From the NCBI GenBank assembly GCA_963726195.1, contig CAVSBO010000008.1:64001-128000 (forward strand): DNA of 64,000 nucleotides, read 5' to 3'. The translations under genes and the position numbers were made by a program. This document shows, piece by piece, positions 8,730 through 54,422 of this stretch (its first letter is position 1; every line of letters begins with the position of its first letter). The stretch comes from Candidatus Thorarchaeota archaeon (lineage in GTDB: Archaea; Asgardarchaeota; Thorarchaeia; Thorarchaeales; Thorarchaeaceae). The notes beneath the pieces were generated by a model. The model was not told the DNA's origin, searched no databases, and saw only the letters and a program-made list of their open reading frames with translations.

Positions 8730-9430
8730 CTAAAGATTGTGAGGTTCTAAGGTCTGCATCGTCCTTGCAGTTGCCTCTTGGGGCGTATCAGTGCTGCCCT
8801 CCGACATATCACTTTCTACGTCGGATTGAGAAACGCCCACAGGACGCAATGCTATGTTGAACGAAGCATTGACGTCGGCGTTCTCCACGTACCCGCATGT
8901 TAGGCACTTGAATCTCTTACCGTTCCGGTCTCCTAAATGGCCGCACCTCGAACAGCTCTTACTCGTCCATGCAGGCTCGATGTAGGCTACGACTATTCCT
9001 TGCAGCTTGGCCTTGTAATCGACAAACTTTCGTAGCTGGCAGAAGGACCAACTGTTCAAGGAGTAGTTGAACGACTTTACATGTTTCTTGTCCTTTCGGA
9101 TGCCGCTAAGGTCTTCGAGCTTGATACCAGATCCCGAAGCCTTTGCTGTCTCGACTATCTTACTGCTCATCCTGTGGTTAATGTCCCTGACAATGCGGCT
9201 CTCTCCGTTCCTAATCTTCTTGACCATGCTATACTTCCTGCGTTTCTGGAGCCTGCGCCGGATGTTCTTGTACTTCTTGTGGATATGCCGGCATTGCTTG
9301 CCGAGCTTCCATACCTTTCCGGTCCTCGGATTACACACGACGGCCGCATGTCCGGTAGCGTTGAGGTCTACGCCAATGTAGTATTCTGGTTCCAAAGCTT
9401 CCTTCTCGGGTACGCTCACGCTGACATAGG
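8730..9430 (-). pseudogene. tnpB: tnpB 3' part (RuvC + Zn ribbon)
   Basis: IGVDLN, KLEDL, TSKSCSRC...CLTC, NADVNASFNI. Confidence 0.92.
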
Positions 9431-15778: not shown

Positions 15779-16365
15779 TGAAACGTGAACTGTGGTTTGT
15801 CTCGAGATTCGTGCCTACACAGAATCCCGGGGGCTGTCATCGTTGCAACGAAGATCAAGCATCGACCAGACTCCCATCGCTATGGGGCTGAGGATAGGTA
15901 TGAAAGCAACAACCAATAGGAGCAGCACTGGGCCAATGCAGGACCTGGACGAAGACGGTTCATTGGGTTCTGTTTGCTACTCGTTCAAATGGAGGCATCC
16001 AAATCTAGCAGAATAGATGTTGAAGTGATAAGACTCTCTCTTTGAGCAAGTCTCCACCGTTCATTGCAAGTTGGGCAAAGCCGGACACAACCGCCTTTGC
16101 TTTCTCAGAAACGGCAATAGGGTCGCACTCCTTGAGACTGCAATATGCCGAGTCAACCTCAAAGATATGTCTAGTTCCGGTCAATCAAGCTCTTATTCGA
16201 AGATTTCCAAGATTGTCCAACTTCCACAAAGCTGTTGCATACCCGTGCACTTGCATAACGTCTATATATCAAGAGATGTCACAAATGCGTTGCGAGAGAC
16301 AATCGGCATCTCCGCACTATGTGGATCATCAAACGAAGGGCCGCATCATCAAAGGAGGGCGAGTC

Positions 16366-41855: not shown

Positions 41856-42135
41856 AGAAGTGTCCTCGAGTCACGACTGTAATGATGATTGACTGAATGT
41901 CACCTTCTATCTATGGTTTGCGGCGATTGTGCATTAACTGTCTGAGTCTCGAGTTTGACTGACTACCACGGCGTGACCATGAACGAGCCTGTGGCTAGGC
42001 TGTCAGGCGGCGACTTTCGTTCGGACGGCTCCAAAATGACAGGTGTATCGCAATCACGGTGAGTGCGAAGAATGCTCTCGCCACGTTGGAGAATGATGAT
42101 GTCGAAATGCCTCCCTGCCGGATCAAGAGGTCCGC

Positions 42136-42586
42136 CTAGGAATCCCATGTGATTCCAAGCATTCTCTCGGCCGTTTCCCACAACCTTCGTTGCAGGTCCA
42201 AATCATAGGACAGCTCGGACGAGCGGCTCTCTTCCTTCTTTGAGAAATACTTGCCGCTGACACCCTCGATGTCTGGCGACGATGCAAGAAGAACAGAAGT
42301 CTCTGCCCCCTTCTCTGGAGGGATTTGCATTGGACGTACCATCTTGAACATGACACTGCTTCGGGTTCCTGCGTTGCCTCCCAGATTGGTTGCAACGAAA
42401 CCCGGATGAACGACGTTGGCAGTTACACCAGTGTTCTCCAGACGGCGAGCTAGTTCGTAAGTGAACATGAGAACCATTAGCTTGGCATTCTGATACGCTG
42501 TCATTCCTTTGTAGTGCTTCGTGCTCTGAAGATTGTCGAAGTCGATCACTCCATTCTTGTGAAGTCCTGAGGTTATGTTGATAACC
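42136..42586 (-). pseudogene. Short-chain dehydrogenase/reductase, 3' half (interrupted by mobile element)
   Basis: VINITSGLH, YQNAK (YxxxK), VVHPGFVAT. Confidence 0.9.
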
Positions 42587-42588
42587 GT

Positions 42589-44627
42589 TCATTGTAAGTT
42601 GGACAAAGTTGGACATATTTCCTTTGTCCTCCCAGGAACGGCACTGGGACTCTGGACATGAATTATGTTTCGTGCAGCATTGATGTCCGCATGAATGTGT
42701 GAGTCGCAGTTTGGACAGTAGAAGTACTCTCCACCTTTCTGTTCCACCTTTGACCTGCAACTATCGACACGTATGCCTTTCTGCCTGCACACATGGCAGG
42801 TCTGGCTGGTGTAGGCGGGGTTCACTGTCCACACACTGTACGGGCTATGACCCAGTGACTCGCGCATGTACCGGACAGTGTCGATAACCTCTCCCCACAG
42901 GTTGGTGGAGAGTCTCCACGACAGGGCTCCCTGACCAGCCGGGGTCTGGTAGTTCCTCAAGTCTTCGAAGTAAACGGTCTTCACACTGTGCTCTTCGCAG
43001 AACCAAACAGTGTGCGAAGCAACCAACCGGGAAACTTCACGGTCGAGACGACGCACCTTCTGCCACACAGCATCCTGATGTCTCTCTTTTTTTAGCAAGA
43101 ACACAGGATGCGACAGCCCCGGCCGTTTCTTGTCCCAGTTGTTCCTTCTCCTGTCCACTTCGGATCTGAGCAGCGAGGCCTGTTCTCTAAGCCTCTCCCT
43201 TTTCTCCAACAGATACTCCACTCTAAGCAGCTCGTCCAGGTAATCACCATCCTCTTGAACTGAAAGGGCAACGGGGACTCTCACACCCCTATCGACACCG
43301 GCTAGTGCAGTGTACTCCTTTTCTCCTAAGACCTGCAGCAGAGTCTTTCTGTCAGGGGAAAGAAAGGGGATTTGGAGTGTGACGCGATGACCTCTCATGA
43401 GCAGGCGAGGTGGGGCACTCCTCCTCAAGGACTTCAAACTCTTCATATCGGCCTCGAGCCTCGCCACCTCTTCGGGGTCGGATTCTCTCTTCTGTCTGAG
43501 GCATGAGAGCGCGTAGGCCAAGTGCTGGACTTGAATGGTGTTCATGAGCTGTTGGTGTTGGTCCTCAAGCTTCGCTGCCCTGAACCTCAGCCTGTGTTGC
43601 ACGAGCAACTCTTCCCTCCTGCTCGACTGCCTCGGCTCTGTTACGGCCGTCTCCCGCAGCACGAGGCAGCCAGTTCAGAAATCTGAAGGTCAGAGTCTGA
43701 GTACCATATGGAGAACCGTCGCTGGGTGTGCCATCGAGTCCCGGGAGGGAGCTTGATGTGGAGGAGAACCTCATTCTCCCTATCGTTGTCGAGTGTGAAC
43801 CAGTAACCCTGTCCCACACTGTTCTCTGTCGATGCCGAGTAGTCAAGGCTCCACTTTCTGAGCTGAGGGACTGTAAAGGGATACCCCTCCTTGTGCCAGC
43901 ATTGTATCCGCTCAGCTACGAGCGAGGTCACTTCCCCGAACTCGGGCGAGTTGGCCTGCAGGTGGTCACCGACCCGCTTCCTCTGCGCAGACCTCGACCC
44001 AAGGGGCTGAGCAAGTGAGGAGAGAATGTACTCGTCAAGAGCCCTCCTGATCTGTTTCAGAGCACCCAAGGCATAGTGATATCCTGTACCGTTGTCCTTT
44101 GCACGCTCACAGGAGTCTCTCACCTTTCGTATCAGGTCAGCTGGAATGTATCTGTTCCTGAGCAAACGGAGTTGGTCGGCAAGGGAAGCATCCAGAAGAG
44201 AAACTGCAGATTCCACAAGCCTTCTTCGAGTGTGGTCAGCATGAACCGTCCTGGCAGCCTGTTCCAGTACGTCCCTATGAAGCCTTTCGAACACAAGCTG
44301 TCTGAACTCTTCGTTATGCTGGTAACAGAGGTCACGCTCCTTCCTGAGGAGCGTGTAGCCATAACCCCTGTACTTCGTCAGCTCTTCGCCCAACCTCTTT
44401 GCTCTTGCAGGGTGAGAATAGACTCGCTCAAGTGCGAGGTTGACCGCCTTCACATACCTGTCCAAGTAAGTACCTATGGTAGCCAGCCCAAGATCCCCGA
44501 CCTTTGTGCCAAAGGTCCTGCATAATGTATGCAGTCTTTCTTGGGATGATATGGATGCGTTTGAGGGGAAGGTTCTCCTACTGAAGGCCGGGTCTGGCTG
44601 CTTTCCAAGACCTTTGTGCGAGGGCAT
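42589..44627 (-). CDS. Large TnpB/Cas12f-like RuvC nuclease, ~680 aa (frameshifts near 43745 and 43590)
   Basis: AGVDRG (RuvC-I), YFEDL (RuvC-II), TSQTCHVC...CPNC, HADINAARNI (RuvC-III). Confidence 0.88.
42596..42615 (+). repeat. Tandem subterminal motif (AAGTTGGACA)x2
   Basis: Read directly from the sequence. Confidence 0.9.
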
Positions 44628-44933
44628 GTAATCTTGGGAACACAGGGTGAAGGACTCGACAAGATATCTCACGTGACCACAATTATATATGCCGCCCATT
44701 GTTGTATGCATGCTCTGCGTCCGGGGGTGGCGCTGGACGGGTCGTTTCACGGCAGTTCCTCAACATCTCTGTGTATTGCGGTCCTCTTAAGCGCCACCAA
44801 TTATATATATCATGGAAGTTTCCCAACTGAGAACTTATGCATACTATATTTGCCACTTTTGACTGTCATATCGCTTGTATAATTAGCCATATTGTCACAG
44901 CATCCTTATAAATAGCTGAGGTCCACCAGTACC

Positions 44934-47900
44934 ATGCTCAAGGGCGAGACCGATGTCAGACCAAGTGAGGTTTTGAGAGATTCATTGTCAATAGGCCTGG
45001 CCGCCATAGCCAGACTGACAAGGTGTCGCTCCAATTCCACTGTCAGGAAGTACGTCGACTCGATAGCCCAGTGCTGGTCCGATGCATCTGCCAAGCTGGA
45101 AAACGTCCTTGCCACGACACAGTACGGAGCATCTGCGATCGTGTCATCAATCGCAGCCATAGAGCACAGTCTTCGGCACTCCATCTCAAGTTCCTCTGGC
45201 AGAGCACGAAACGCTACGGAAACCGCGAATTCAAACGGGTTTACGATTGGAGACAGGGCTCTGTTGGTCCGCTTAACGGGTTTCTGAACTACCTTGGAGC
45301 AAGGCTCAGAGACCTTGCCGTTACCCGCTATTCATTTCCAACACCCCAGCACTATCAGGTGAGAGAGTACCCTGACGGCTCCAAGAAGGTTCTCGCAGCG
45401 TCCGTTGCATCCAAGTTACCCATTGACGGCTCAGTAAAGAGATACTGGAAGGCAGGATACCCAGGGACATCGAGAGCCCCGCGGGTGCTGCTAGCACACC
45501 CAACTCTTCCGGAAATGGACTTCGTGGACATGCTCCGGGGGCATCTGGTCGAGCTCTCTCGTCAGCTGTTTATCTACAACGTGCCCCGTGATGATGCCCA
45601 TAGATACATCCGACTCTTGGTTGCTCGGTTAACGCCATTCCTCGACTGGGTCTACACAGGAGGAAAGGCAGGTCGCAAGAACTTCTGTCCTGATGGTGAC
45701 AGAGAACTCAGGCACCTTGTCCTCGAAATACGGTCCACTTACGGCAGAAGAGCTGGACAGGGTCGTAGGACATCTGAGATGGCTCAGCAAGAGGGAACTC
45801 CGAGTGTCAGTATCGCTACGCTCACAGAGAAAGCCATTGGACTACTCCAGAGCACCCAAGATCCTGAGATTCGGAAGGCATGCGAGCGCATACTTGACAG
45901 TATAAACCAAGAGGTTCTCACCGAGAATGACGTGATGCGGCTCAGGGAGCACATAGTCGCTCTAATTCAACAGGAGGGCAATGACTGGCACAGGGTGCTT
46001 CTATCAGACCTGCATCACTGTTCTCTCATCGATGCTGTTCTGAGCGGCGACTCGATGCTTGAGACTGTCTCCGATAGACAGTTCTTAGCCGAGGTTCTCA
46101 ATGAAAGGTTCTGAAGACCAAGGGCAGGCTGATATTGTCCTCTTTCTGAGGAGAAAAGCGGGACTACGAGTAGTCTGGACTCCCGTGATGGTTCTGGAGA
46201 TAAAGACGAGAAGCTCCTTCGATTTTGCGCTCTACGGCCTAAGACCACGAACCAAGATTATGAACGCGTTTGTGCCAGCCCTTTGCCCTTGGAAAGTGTT
46301 CTCTTTCAGAGAAAGAGTGGGAGAGCATCGTTTCGTCAGAACCGCCGCAGAGCAACCTGCGACAGTTGGAGCTCTATGAACGAGGACTGATAGAGGAGTA
46401 CCGACGACTGGTTCCTGAGGATCACACGCTGCCGTCTCTCTGTGGAAAGGTGTCGTAGTGGTCGACAGCTTACAGACATACAAAGAGACCTTCGAAGCCT
46501 TCTCTGCTCTCACTCAGAACCTGATGCAGCTTCGTCACTTGCCATCAGGAAAAGGAAGATGGTCTTCGCTGAGCATGAAAGACCTCTTTGACAGGAGTCC
46601 GAGAGTCGCATTGCTGATGTCACCTTCCGAGGGGCCATCCCACTTGCTCAGTCGGACCACATTTCCAGACTCCATCTTGATAGAGAACCCGTTCAAGGAC
46701 AGTACCGAACACCAGCGGAATCTGACGCTCTACATACCTGTCGCATCAGTCAACATCTGGAGGAAGAGCCGCTGCATGGCACTCCAAGAACTGGCATTTG
46801 CTCAACCATATCCAAGAACTGCGCGAAAGAGACCGGGATGTTGGAGGTGTGGTCTGGCTGGATTTAACCAGCTCTCTTCCTGAAGGGTTTCGCAGACGTG
46901 CTTTCAGGCTGGAGAACACCAGGAGGAAGAAAGGGCGGCTTCTGGAACACTTGCAGCGATTCTGGATGAAGTCGATTTTCATGACATGGGGAATATGGTG
47001 CGAGAATACCTTGCAGGCAGGGCTGATGCAGACATAGCACGGGAGCTGACTGGTATCAGGCAATCACGGCAGCCCGGCTCCCGATTCATCGTCGTCATTG
47101 ATGGATGGAGCGAACTCCGCCAAATGGTCCATGGCTCTGAAAGGCAGAGACTCAGAGCCCTTGAACAGCTTCTCGTCGAGAAGATTGTCGCAAAAGAGAA
47201 CGAGGTCATATGGGTTGACAGTGGAATCCAGCACACGAAGATGAACTTGATTTACCAGAGACCATGCGTACGTCCGCTGGAGGCAGATTCGCCTCGCAGA
47301 CTTCGTCTCGGGGAGATATTATGGAACATGCCTTTGCCGCCAAAGGGATTCGGATGGCAGGCACCATGGTTTGACGATAAGAGGGTGATTATTCAGGACA
47401 CTGCCACTTCAGCACCTCTCTGGTCAACGGTAATTGATGTGCCGATGTTAAGACATTGGCCGAGGAAGTTCAGAGGTCTATCGAACAGGGAAGTGACAAT
47501 CCAGGAATATGAAGTCAGGTCCAGTCTTCTGACAGACGAAGACATGTACGGTCGGTCTGTCCGGCTTTCTTCTATCCAAGCCGATATGCAGCAGCTTTCT
47601 GAAGAGACAATCATGGACATTCAAGAGAAAGCGATGAGTCTCGCTCCGAGCCTACTCAGATCAAGAAACAGGGAAGAACAACAAGTCATACCAGACACCG
47701 AACAGTCGTCGATGACCCTGCTTTCCGTTATGGTTACATGTGCCTCGCCTCCGACCCTTAGTGATAGACTGCATCTCCAGCCCTGTCATCCTCCTCCTGA
47801 GCCCGGGCGGTCCAAGCTGAGATATGTGGACCCGGAGCGGATAACACGTGAGTGGCAGAACAGAATCCTAAAGAAGGACGAGGAAGATAGCAAGAGAAGT

Positions 47901-50058
47901 CGCATGACCCGGCGGCCTCCGCTCTATGCTGTGACCATGTCTCAGAGAATCGACTCCGACACAACTCGAAGACGTGAAGTCAGACGACTAATGCATGCGG
48001 CCGACTATCTCAAGCACCGACTCGACCCCGGCGAAGATCTGGAAGTTCTGTTCGAAGACATAGTTGCTTGCTGTCGTTCCACGCTTGAAGGCCCAAGAAA
48101 TGGCCAGTTGTATCTGAAGACTTTGTTGGAAGTCCATGACATGATTCTTGAGAACACGAGACGGCGAGGTGCATGGCTTTTGATAGAGCAAGAGAGGAAC
48201 ACCCTCGGAGATGTTCTGAGCCTTGAGAACCGTGCCGCGCTTCAACAAGCGATGTCTCGCAACCCCGAGCTGCTGACGCTATATGGCAACAATCTGTTCC
48301 TTGCTGTAATCGTTGCCATCACGAGAATCATGGATGACCCCGTTGATCTGGGGATACTCCCACTATGGAGAGCAGTTGCAGAATGGGAGCTCTATCAGAT
48401 GGGTTTCAAGCCCGCAGAGAGGCCGCCATACATGGCTCGTTCCAGATACGACTTCGCGTCAATCTATGGCAACCTGCTGTTCCGGACAAGGAACCTCGTA
48501 TCTCAGAAACAGAAATCACAGGCCGCACCGAAGAGGCCTCAGGCATATCAGTATAGAGAGGGGATACTTGTCGGTAAAGAGGGGTCGTCCTGCTGGCTCC
48601 TGTTCAAAGCGGATGATGGAAGGGTTGTATGCGGGTTGCTAGAGGACCCCGGTGGCAGGCTGGGCATAGGTTGGTATCGATGTTCTACCAATCCTGCGCA
48701 GATGTCTGAGGCTGCTGAGGACACTCTTCACGGGAGCAACGACGACATTCAGATGCACTTGGCCGTGACCACCGTGGGCAAATCCGAGATACTCTGGCAG
48801 CGGCACGAAGAAGGCACCGGTGGCTGGATGCTTCTGGGACGACTTGAGTATCAGATTAACGAACGAGAGGGAGTCGCAACCATACCGTGGCTGAAGACAT
48901 CAGAACCGGATTTGAAGACCTCGCTAGGCCTATCTGAGAGCATGCCCGTAGGTGTACCATCCTCAGAGTCAACGTCGCGGCTACTAACCCCTCTCAAGAA
49001 AATAGCAGAGTGGAATGTCGAAGTCAAGAGTGTGAAGTGTGAGGTCTCATTGGACACTAGGAAAAGAGCGTATGTCATTACATTTCGCAATCCTGAACTG
49101 CCCAGCCAGTGAAGTCTACGAGAGTTTTGAGAGCGCAGACACCCTTGAAATCGTGTCCGTACTGAGGTCGCCCGTGACAGGAAAACAACAGGTGATCACA
49201 AAGGAAGGAGCAGTCCTCACTTGGGACCATCTGAAGGATATCGACTATGGGGTCGCAACAGTTCCAACTCGAGATGGTGAGGCAGATATCAGCCTGTCAT
49301 TCCTCAGACCTCTTGTCCATCGCAGTCGGTTCTTTGCCGGAGATTATGTGGTTCCATACAATGCGACTCAGCTGTTCACTCTTAGAGAGGGACCGCCTGT
49401 GACGATCAGAGTCCTCCCGTGGGACAGAAAACAAAGTGACTATGACCTCAGACGACTCAGGGTCACCATTGATGGACTCAACGAGGACTCTGGCTTGAAG
49501 GGTCTCGAGGATAGAATGATGAAAGTCCGGGATGTCGCTCTGCTGACGGACTGCGAGCACTCATCGATGTCAGGTCAGGTCTGGTACATCCCGTACGAGT
49601 TAACGTCAGAAAGGTGGTCGGGCTTAAGTCTCCTGAGGACATATCAGATTCCCGACTTGTGGAGCTGACTTTCGGAGTTGGAGGAGGAGAGCCATGATTC
49701 AGATGAGGAGTCAGAGTCTTACTCAGACGAGAAGCAAGAGAAGAGTTCCAAAGCGGAACAACGTCAAATGGTCTTCGTGTCAGCCAATGTAATCGTTGGC
49801 AGGCGAATGACTGTCATAGAGTATCATGTAGACGTGACGTTGGCTCCGGTCGATGATACAAAAAGCGTGGAGGTGGGAGAACTCATGACAGTGAGGTGGG
49901 AGAAAGGCCGTACTGCAGCCAACTATGAGGGCTTAGCAGAAGAGATTAGTGCGAATCTCAGGAAACAGGGCGTGGTGGAAGGCGACCATGGGGAAGCCAC
50001 CCGAGACATTATGGCTCTGCTGGAGAAGGCGGGCCTGCCGGTTCTGGAGGATGAGTAA
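44934..50058 (+). CDS. Giant hypothetical protein (~1700 aa if joined) with PD-(D/E)xK nuclease motifs; multiple frameshifts
   Basis: Chain of overlapping ORFs 44934-50058; GQADIVL...VLEIKT...QLELYE; IVVIDG; acidic stretch near the C-terminus. Confidence 0.65.
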
Positions 50059-50178
50059 GAGGAAATGGTTGCAGTGCCAGATACTGTGAACCCAAGGCTG
50101 GCAGCCGCGGTTCCTCGATCACGACTTAGCCTATCCGACATTGTTACAACACGCTGCAGCATTCATCCGCCTTGGATG

Positions 50179-50207
50179 TGTCCTCCATGTCCAAGATTGT
50201 CCAACTT
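50179..50207 (-). repeat. Subterminal motifs AAGTTGGACA/ATCTTGGACA/(G)GACA
   Basis: Inverted relative to the motifs at 42596-42615. Confidence 0.85.
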
Positions 50208-50220
50208 CTAGGCAGTGGAT

Positions 50221-50629
50221 ACCCTTGAAGGGGCGCTCGATTTCAAGATCGGCAGCAGTTCGTGTGTCAGGAGAAAAGGAGCAAGGTAGTTCACTGCCAA
50301 TGATCGTCGAAACCATCGACAGTTACCTCTCGCTTGTTGAAGACAGCGCCAGCATTGTTGTCTAGAACGTCAAGTCGCTCATGACTATTCTGAAACTCTT
50401 CTGCAAAACGACGTATCTCTTGCACAGAGGAGAGGTCACAAATCATGAGTTCGAGCGCATTGTTGCCGGTTGTCTTAGCGATTTCCGCACGCGCTTGTTC
50501 GCCTCGCTCTCTGTTTCTAACAACCATAACTACATTGGCATCCATCCGAGCCAATGCTCTGGCCGTCTCTTTTCCTATCCCTGAGTTGCTGCCGGTGACT
50601 ACGCAGACCTTGTTTGTCATGAGTCCCAT
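50221..50629 (-). pseudogene. Short-chain dehydrogenase/reductase, 5' half
   Basis: VTGSNSGIG, CDLSS, NNAG, then (after an indel) VNYLAPFLLTHELLPILKSSAPSR ending at the junction. Confidence 0.9.
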
Positions 50630-50794
50630 TCTCTCTGCTCCCAGTACACTACTCGTGTTCTGTTGGTGCTTCATGAAACCAATAACACGGATTATCAGAA
50701 TCGCAACGGATTTCCTATGATTCCGTTATTGTAGTATCGATAGGGCCTTTTCCGTGCGTCGAGAGGTTGCACTCATAATTGTCACTCTAATCCA

Positions 50795-52378
<1,584 letters not shown>

Positions 52379-52379
52379 T

Positions 52380-53002
52380 ATTCACGAATCCACCATTCGG
52401 GACTAAGATACCGGTTGATGACCAGAGAATCCTTCAGCAGTTCGAACTTGCTAGGCAATGGATAGGTGGAAAGGGAGACCTTGGACGGTGACGGAGAGGA
52501 TGCATAGGAGCGTTCCTCCAGAGATTCTCTTCATTGAGAGATGTGTGAAATGGACTATTCCTGGCGCGGGAAGAGACGCCATCGTTTTAGACAGGGATTC
52601 TGGCAAACAGAAACACGACTTACGTTCGCCAATGGATTCTCCAAAACTGCGAGGTTCGCAAGCGTTCATGTGTCATAGAATGCTCCCCAAGACGGTGAAA
52701 CTAGTTTCTTTCTGTAGGTTCCCGAGAAAGAACAGGCTAGAGCATTGGCCGGCGAGTGTCCTTCCTACAAGACTTTCTTTGCAGTGGCGGAACATGTTGG
52801 AAAAGACAAAAGGGGGAATCCAGTCTTTCGAAGAGATGAACGAGGGCGCATCGTGACTGTCAGACAGGAGCGTTCCATTCAAAATGAGCGATTCAGCCAG
52901 ACGGGCACCGAGAAGTATGTGGAGGTCCCAGTACTGGATGATGATTGGCCGCTGATAGCCGAAGCATTCAGAAACGAGAAACTACAATCTAGTCGCCAGT
53001 GA
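52380..53002 (+). CDS. N6-adenine DNA methyltransferase (type I/IIB M-like), 3' fragment, error-ridden
   Basis: NPPFG-like region at ~52387, PPEILFIERCV...IVL..GIL, FFAVAEHVGKDKRGNP. Confidence 0.75.
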
Positions 53003-53009
53003 TTCAGAG

Positions 53010-54422
53010 ATGAGGACCAGCGTAGACGTATCAAAGCATATCGATGAGATGAGTTCACGACTGGACGCAGGACACTATCTCTCGGTTGGATATCGCAATG
53101 TTGGCTGTCCGCTGTCAGCCACTGCTTCTGAGTCGATTCAGGCAATAGAATCCTTCCCCGAACACACCCAGTTGAGCGAAGTCGTGAGGGGAATTGACAT
53201 ACTCCGAGATTCTCCAGAGTGTACGTTGATGAACAAAAGGGGGCCCCATTCCTTTCTGGCACAGATATTACGAGAACATACAGTCCGCGAATAAAATACC
53301 TGTCCTTGGAGGCCCACAGGAATTTGTTACCTCGGCTGACAATCCGGAAGGGAATGATTCTCGTATCATTGGCTCAGTAACTTTATAAGCCGGACAGCCT
53401 TGGTTGGCGAATACTGGAATGGTTGGACTGCAAGTCAGCATGTCCTTAGAATAAGAGTCGACGATGATTGTTTGAACGCGGGGTATCTATATGCATTCTT
53501 GTGTACCGAGTATGCACAGTCCCAGATTAGTAGAGAGATTCACGGGTCAGTTGTTGACGAAATCAATGAGGTTCAAATGGGAAATGTTCTGCTACCGATT
53601 CCTGACAAGCGGATTCAGGCCTCAATTGCAAAGCTGGCATGCGACGGAGTCGCTAGGTTGGATTATTTTCGGTCCACGACCCAGAAAGCTACTCAGACAA
53701 TATCAGCAGAAACTGGCGTGGATATGCATCTGGCTGATAGCAAATGGCACGTACTAGAGTCCAATGCGGTACGCGACCGACTTGATGCGACACACTACAT
53801 GCGAGCAGCCTTAGAGATTGAAAGGATGATGGCCAGTCAATCGTCTGAAAAGGTAGGAAGACTCGCAAGTGTCTTTCTGGCACCCAGATTCAGGCGCTTC
53901 TACGTGGATTATAGCAATGGAATTCCATTCCTCTCCGGAAAGAGCATATTGCAGGTATTTCCGACGCCACTGCAGTACCTTTCACGTGACTTGCATGCTG
54001 ACCTCATTCCTCTTCTAGAAGTCAAAAAGGGAACCATTCTGGTCACATGTTCTGGGACAGTCGGGAATATCGGAATGGTATGGAATCAATGGAATGGATG
54101 GGCTGCCTCTCAGCACATTCTGCGGGTAACACCCTCATCCGAACATATCCATCCCGGATTCCTCTATGCATTTCTGATGAGTCCGTGTGCCCAGCTGCAG
54201 ATAGCGAAGCAAGTTCACGGCTCGGTCATCGATGAGATTACAGACTACCAGCTGGGCGAGCTTCTTGTGCCCCTGATTCAGTGGGAGAAACAGAAGGAGA
54301 TTGGGGAAAAAATACATCTGGCGCTGGATGCGCTCGACGAGGCGCGTTCTCTGATTTCCGCAGCAGTGGATGGCGCCGCCTCGGGGATTATGGAGGCCGT
54401 TCGGCCTCTCCAATCATTATGA
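53010..54422 (+). CDS. Restriction-modification specificity (HsdS-like) subunit (frameshifts in 5' part)
   Basis: RLDAxHY twice, GIPFLSG, ILVTCSGTVGN, GFLYAFL, HGSVIDEI. Confidence 0.82.

Follow-up and report, generated by a model that had tools for sequence, protein, structure and literature searches.

Element ends and insertion site

In the 64,000-nt stretch of DNA analysed here (the window), an SDR gene is interrupted by an element that carries two divergently oriented genes, a long tnpB and a giant gene of the aCas1 type. Both halves of the SDR gene match adh_short and lie on the minus strand: the 3' half (42136-42586) begins with the right-hand GG core (42585-42586), and the 5' half (50222-50674), which has one frameshift in the assembly, ends in four bases (50225-50222) that make up the target motif and predicted TAM, AGGG, and include the left-hand GG core. 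An earlier note on this DNA had proposed that deleting 7637 bp restores the gene, and our sequence check bore out the junctions, the deletion and the restored frame (SAPSRVINITSGLH) in which the two halves rejoin. The note had also pointed to an intact SDR allele in related data as a check, and we found the exact empty allele in three public runs from two studies, on contigs of runs X1 and X2 (one study) and X3 (another study). These contigs skip exactly 7637 bases, with three letters that fit on either side, and the X1 contig differs from the window flanks by three letters and one gap over ~1.7 kb.

The empty site reads AGGG followed by T, and the filled site has only GG in common with it. 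The core had previously been read as GGT; the GG stands, but the T is a target preference seen across the flanks of the family. Because the filled site shares only GG, the element proper, a non-autonomous IS607-family element on the minus strand, spans 42587-50221 without duplication (left end 50221, right end 42587; 7635 bp between the GG cores) rather than 42584-50223 as first given. Comparison of the filled and empty alleles shows that the element entered the SDR gene at AGGG, that the two alleles have the GG core in common and that no bases were duplicated. Among the public contigs and reads examined, none bridges the filled junctions of the SDR site, and the filled allele rests on the assembly; a circle joint of the element ends was likewise not found among the public contigs listed. 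The product of a neighbouring host gene shares 80% identity with a Thorarchaeota protein, in support of the Asgard host that had been suggested.

Tandem 10-bp motifs, which are predicted TnpA sites, lie at 42596-42616 (plus strand) at the right end and at 50187-50207 (minus strand) at the left end, and only two repeat motifs were found per end. Together they form a 21-nt subterminal inverted pair (19/21 matching) that is the longest in the region and beyond chance, as none of 2000 random 60-nt window pairs reached it. The left end of the window copy is 4 nt shorter than the family consensus, with its motifs 4 nt nearer the core. A GG core, the lack of a target duplication and phased motifs are hallmarks of IS607 elements (Chen et al. 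2018, PMC6188088), and the IS607-type ends claimed from the letters are all present, namely the GG core, the phased subterminal motifs and an imperfect inverted repeat. The terminal position claimed for tnpB also holds, its stop codon lying 3 nt from the right end. We found no tnpA (HTH and serine recombinase) within the window copy and no tnpA remnant between its left end and the giant gene, which agrees with its description as a cargo carrier that has no transposase and is non-autonomous.

With the IS607 family (IS607, IS1535 and ISC1926; PMC6188088) the element therefore shares the GG core without target duplication, a preference for (G)GG targets, short phased motifs, a subterminal inverted repeat that is imperfect, a tnpB located at the right end and, in the parent copy described below, an HTH-serine recombinase TnpA. 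It differs in its size (7.6-8.1 kb, compared with about 2 kb for IS607 elements), in the 5-kb inverted gene that sits between tnpA and tnpB, in a TnpB of ~720 aa that scores only 28 bits against NF038280 (cut-off 350), and in the lack of tnpA from the window copy. Unlike an IStron, it has no group I intron and no Rfam match of note, and only 163 bp separate the left end from the giant gene.

The long TnpB, its RNA and its guide

The long tnpB lies at 42589-44750 on the minus strand; it encodes 722 aa in an intact sister copy and has frameshifts near 43591 and 43740 in the window. Ordinary TnpB proteins are far shorter, and here about 480 residues precede the canonical D-E-D triad (D at 43291-43293, E at 42964-42966 and D at 42685-42687) and a C4 zinc finger. 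The glutamate at RuvC-II sets the 720-aa class apart from TnpBs with a rearranged RuvC (RIIr, Fanzor-like), in which RuvC-II has Gly or Pro and another Glu serves instead. A contig scan with a TnpB query gave no match, and the N-terminal part matched only unnamed clusters when compared with the Atlas.

The 3' part of a predicted omega-RNA scaffold occupies 42585-42648 (minus strand) and shows compensatory changes among 29 sequences. It would form a hairpin of 5 bp (42631-42648), with a loop (42637-42641) able to pair with 42585-42589 as a pseudoknot. Across the 29 sequences, C-G changes to U-A at two pairs of the hairpin (in six and two sequences), and the pseudoknot shows one change from C-G to U-A and one from U-A to C-G, with a few mismatches. 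This covariation supports the predicted hairpin and pseudoknot without amounting to proof, the sequences being related and not independent. A second hairpin, in the first codons of tnpB (44718-44739, minus strand), resembles that of the omega-RNA, and its stem covaries in ~20 loci; it is possibly an autoregulatory site bound by TnpB. An AT-rich divergent spacer with TATA-like stretches (44751-44933) separates tnpB from the giant gene.

The predicted guide (42565-42584, minus strand) consists of the host SDR sequence that directly follows the right end; this sequence has its match in the empty allele, beside AGGG, so that the empty allele is its predicted target. The IS607 TnpB of the C. botulinum IStron has the TAM TGGG and a scaffold ending in GG, and its homing has been shown (PMC10690162); the TAM and the homing role that we propose here are inferred from this distant TnpB. 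The two have in common a TAM-like NGGG on the left, a scaffold end GG on the right, a guide predicted to come from the flank and an intact RuvC. They differ in that AGGG is preferred here rather than TGGG, and in that we found no group I intron.

The giant aCas1-type protein

The giant gene lies at 44934-50058 on the plus strand and encodes 1708 aa in the sister copy; the window copy has 11 single-base indels. It had been regarded as unknown, but it has a Cas1 fold with catalytic residues. The Cas1 catalytic helical domain (44934-45712) contains the invariant residues E77 (45162), H189 (45497), D196 (45518) and D199 (45527), and the E-H-D signature does not vary across 42 homologues; the N-terminal beta domain of Cas1 is absent. 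This domain is followed by RecB/Cas4-type PD-(D/E)xK nuclease motifs (46091-46377; E387, D400, E422-x-K424 and Q477-x3-Y481) that are kept in 46 homologues and in the window copy, an assignment based on sequence motifs, as this part had no fold match among those listed. Further on lie a RecA/KaiC-fold domain that lacks the Walker A lysine (46704-47615) and, tentatively, a further helical domain (47922-48473) whose fold is weakly Cas1-like and which lacks a conserved catalytic His. The latter is possibly a second, degenerate Cas1 fold: a profile comparison aligned the two Cas1-like domains in register, though not significantly. Pfam, NCBIfam and PADLOC returned no match for the giant protein. 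A profile built on its first domain retrieved no solved sequence, and in the Atlas its C-terminal half had only leads below threshold. Residues ~1200-1600 had no fold match among those listed, which is not evidence of a new fold.

A Cas1 domain within a mobile element invites comparison with casposons, which carry PolB, terminal inverted repeats and target duplications. Here there is no PolB, no long terminal inverted repeat and no target duplication, only a GG core; the intact sister copy has two genes only, and only the helical domain of Cas1 is present, fused into a 1700-aa chain. The locus also differs from type V CRISPR-Cas systems, as there is no repeat array in 42000-51000 and the Cas12f2 model scores 48 bits against a cut-off of 450.

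Related copies in the same genome

A BLAST search with the element recovered a full-length sister on contig C16 (L001) that is 88% identical and has unbroken ORFs of 1708 aa (giant protein) and 722 aa (TnpB), which served as proxies for the broken window genes. The left terminus of this sister is missing and its right core reads GA, yet both genes are intact; it is a stranded copy whose genes stayed under selection.

The tnpA-bearing parent that the earlier note had suggested looking for is present on contig C3. This 8145-bp element has the same ends, with 28/28 bases of its left end identical to those of the window element, and is ordered as tnpA, a distant homologue of the giant gene (26%) and a long tnpB (45-61%), followed by the same right end. 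Its tnpA, just inside the left end, encodes an IS607 serine recombinase that looks intact, scores 174 bits against NF033518 (cut-off 110) and is the only one found in the genome, and excision of the element at GG leaves an unbroken methyltransferase frame. The same genome holds about 10 mini-copies of 183-188 bp with both ends present, and 13/14 left flanks end in NGGG, 10 of these in AGGG, while right flanks of family copies start with GG, mostly followed by T. One 183-bp mini-copy lies inside the window at 16056-16245 (C8:80057-80245).

Other remnants were also observed. A decayed locus (L002, C8:55320-59492) consists of a left end with the tail of a giant gene, and a tnpB tail with a right end, enclosing two unrelated ORFs of 609 and 406 aa; this is either replaced cargo or two separate remnants. 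A fourth giant gene, frameshifted, is paired with a 563-aa rearranged-RuvC TnpB beside a tRNA-Asp (L043, C16:216.4-223.4 kb), and both TnpB classes described below therefore live in one genome. A separate tnpB tail of the 560 class, with its RNA, lies near C16:202 kb.

Distribution across related genomes

The giant gene is present in 50 of 87 related genomes. In 42/43 loci tnpB faces it, the remaining locus stopping at a contig edge, and the giant gene and the long tnpB lie head to head, mostly 70-370 bp apart. The two genes thus co-occur as a conserved pair, and this excludes a one-off capture, which had been raised as the alternative. Two classes of TnpB pair with the giant gene, one of ~720 aa and one of ~560 aa. 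In the 720-aa class the triad is canonical, and the right end is that of the window element in every locus with sequence there. In the 560-aa class RuvC-II carries G, with an E further downstream, and the GTTCACTCA motif is present; none of the 25 loci with a ~560-aa TnpB had a tnpA match. Beyond the giant gene, five 720-aa loci have an intact tnpA and a matching left end; these are the C3 parent and four loci of three other genomes. It had been suggested that the giant gene occupies the place of tnpA, but in these five loci an intact tnpA adjoins it, and the window copy has lost its tnpA.

In a tree of the giant proteins, which was quick and unrooted, left out two broken rows and supports no claim on the direction of capture, at least seven switches of TnpB class fall on well-supported branches, and the pairing has therefore been reshuffled repeatedly. 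The giant gene is absent from 13/29 long-tnpB loci with room upstream, indicating that tnpB persists without it. At these giant-less loci every tnpA remnant is cut at its 3' end, and one locus shares 91% identity with a giant-bearing locus as far as the first codons of the giant gene, both of which are expected of internal deletions. From these comparisons, a three-gene element is the likely parent of the giant-less, tnpA-less and mini derivatives.

To our knowledge, aCas1-TnpB loci have so far been computational predictions only and have never been bench-tested. They were reportedly first described by Makarova et al. in 2020 in CRISPR J. In the analysis of Altae-Tran et al. (2023, PMC10691335), aCas1-associated TnpBs fall into two Asgard groups, Cas1H-Asgard-1 and -2, aCas1 replaces the recombinase and is considered a likely transposase, and aCas1 loci carry the GTTCACTCA motif and a hypervariable stretch before a CRISPR-repeat-like motif. 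The pair in the window had been called undescribed, potentially a new two-gene system, but it fits these loci: the Asgard host, a diverged Cas1 with catalytic residues, an adjacent tnpB and two distinct TnpB groups are common to both, matched by description in PMC10691335 rather than group by group, and the GTTCACTCA motif of that study marks the 560-aa group here. In contrast, the hypervariable stretch and GTTCACTCA are absent at the window locus and in the 720-aa class, where serine recombination of the IS607 type is indicated by the ends, the GG core, the mini-copies and an intact tnpA. In the literature searched, coverage of which was incomplete, no paper links the aCas1-TnpB pair to an IS607 tnpA. 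Rather than a new system, the element is thus a non-autonomous IS607 member that is also a variant of the known aCas1-TnpB loci.

Several features of individual loci concern tRNA genes and RNA motifs. In three loci of the 560-aa class (L068, L070 and L083), the tnpB and giant gene pair is flanked on one side by an intact tRNA-Gly and on the other by a repeat of the tRNA-Gly 3' half; the repeat is 29-46 bp long, starts at the anticodon loop and lies right at the giant stop codon, and no other recombinase is found inside the bounded pair. These loci are the best hint that aCas1 may integrate the 560-aa class. In four loci of the 720-aa class (L044, L045, L071 and L072), sequence similar to a tRNA-Lys 5' end occupies the guide position, followed closely downstream by an intact tRNA-Lys in reverse orientation, which ARAGORN detected in three of the four. 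By eye, a reverse complement of the GTTCACTC motif can be seen upstream of tnpB in the 560-aa class (e.g. L048, L069 and L078); this copy includes part of the "hypervariable" stretch, lies between two TATA-like 13-mers and is either a tracr-like anti-repeat or a terminal inverted repeat. We also considered whether guides of the 560-aa class target their own promoter, but this failed a shuffle test (1/21 at p under 0.05).

Mobility and the role of the giant protein

We believe, with a probability of roughly 0.85, that the window element derives by deletion from a three-gene IS607 transposon, lacks a transposase and was moved by TnpA in trans, with TnpB acting in homing and the giant protein as a passenger. 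The ancestral order would have been left end, tnpA, inverted giant aCas1 gene, long tnpB and right end. By analogy with characterised IS607 elements, TnpA supplied in trans would bind the tandem motifs, excise the element and insert it at GG, TnpB would load the right-end RNA together with flanking host DNA and cut empty alleles (AGGG followed by a guide match), and repair would copy the element back. The giant protein would be a passenger under selection and not the maker of these junctions.

The importance of this reading is that one of the two aCas1-TnpB classes is bounded by IS607 serine-recombinase junctions, which uncouples mobility from the Cas1-like protein and calls for an explanation of the conserved Cas1 active site found beside an RNA-guided nuclease. 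This is relevant to the question of how Cas1 and TnpB became associated during CRISPR evolution. IS607 ends are also shown to carry 5 kb of cargo scarlessly, with the window copy itself as a broken example. The genome offers a full testable set in the form of a tnpA parent, intact sister genes, mini-elements, exact ends, a predicted TAM, a predicted guide and an empty allele.

As to what the passenger does, our guess, held at a little under even odds, is that the giant protein is the DNA-end processing and strand-transfer enzyme of the recombinase-free aCas1-TnpB elements and a re-insertion aid in IS607 elements. The nuclease would trim ends and the Cas1 domain would join them, with the second Cas1-like domain standing in for a non-catalytic subunit; inside IS607 elements the protein would be kept to aid re-insertion at breaks made by TnpB. 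We tentatively rank this role first and defence second. Under the latter, IS607 TnpA would still provide mobility and the giant protein would be a defence or addiction nuclease with the Cas1 and RecA folds as sensors, either benefiting the host or acting as a toxin checked by the element. The intact nuclease motifs, the pseudo-ATPase, the patchy and multicopy distribution, the intact genes in copies that lack ends (such as the sister without a left terminus) and a fragmented type I restriction locus 2 kb away are in keeping with such a nuclease, but it has no PADLOC match and no apparent antitoxin, and an invariant Cas1 active site would be needless for a pure toxin; we consider the defence role rather unlikely.

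Bolder still, and considerably less likely, is that the giant protein is a single-chain Cas1 pseudo-dimer that, with an end-trimming nuclease, joins DNA at TnpB breaks, amounting to RNA-guided integration without host recombination. If true, this would explain why the gene has paired repeatedly, through the class switches noted above, with two unrelated TnpB classes and always facing tnpB. Cas1 and a Cas4-like nuclease are also known as a spacer-acquisition pair, and the presence of both in one protein could suggest a one-chain adaptation module that writes new TnpB guides, as could the hypervariable stretch before a CRISPR-repeat-like motif (PMC10691335) seen in the 560-aa class. We find this improbable, as the guide here is plain host flank without an array, and the variable stretch of the 560-aa class looks by eye to be complementary to sequence upstream of tnpB, a pattern more in keeping with an RNA stem or a terminal repeat than with a foreign spacer.

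Integration by Cas1-type enzymes duplicates the target, as in casposons and CRISPR arrays, whereas only GG is shared at the SDR site. It is therefore highly unlikely that the giant aCas1 is the transposase of this element, with the IS607 features being incidental, despite its invariant active site, the proposal to this effect in PMC10691335 and the 560-aa loci that lack a tnpA match or, in three cases, are bounded by a repeated tRNA-Gly 3' half. The mini-copies and the tnpA parent show the same type of junction, and five loci retain an intact tnpA next to the giant gene. For the 560-aa class, a role of the giant aCas1 as transposase may still be true.

State of the window copy

Compared with the intact sister, the window copy carries 13 single-base indels in 7.3 kb of coding sequence, two of them in tnpB and 11 in the giant gene, whereas 57 host genes have 0.12 per kb. 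There is no nonsense substitution, dN/dS between the two copies is 0.26 for the giant gene and 0.20 for tnpB, and at least five of the indels are absent from related contigs. At window positions 50800-52380, a 1531-nt poly-T run followed by 47 C represents an assembly artefact. Indels without nonsense changes, beside such an artefact, suggest unpolished long-read error, and the 4-nt deletion at the left end suggests some real decay; the frameshifts are thus either assembly error or recent decay, and this copy is probably immobile or decaying. That the filled locus is itself a long-read assembly chimera, as the poly-T artefact beginning 600 bp off, the excess of indels and the public contigs bridging only the empty allele could imply, is very improbable, because both junctions fall exactly at the family ends with a consensus AGGG-T target and a restored frame, the 12% divergence from the only sister and the codon-level selection argue against a misplaced duplicate, and the X3 contig matches 224 internal bases with one difference.

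Elsewhere in the window, fragmented ORFs at 52458-54422 resemble M and S subunits of type I restriction-modification systems. The whole genome has 35 matches to the TnpB zinc-finger/RuvC family compared with one serine recombinase match, and an ORF fragment resembling an ordinary-type TnpB lies at window positions 8730-9419.
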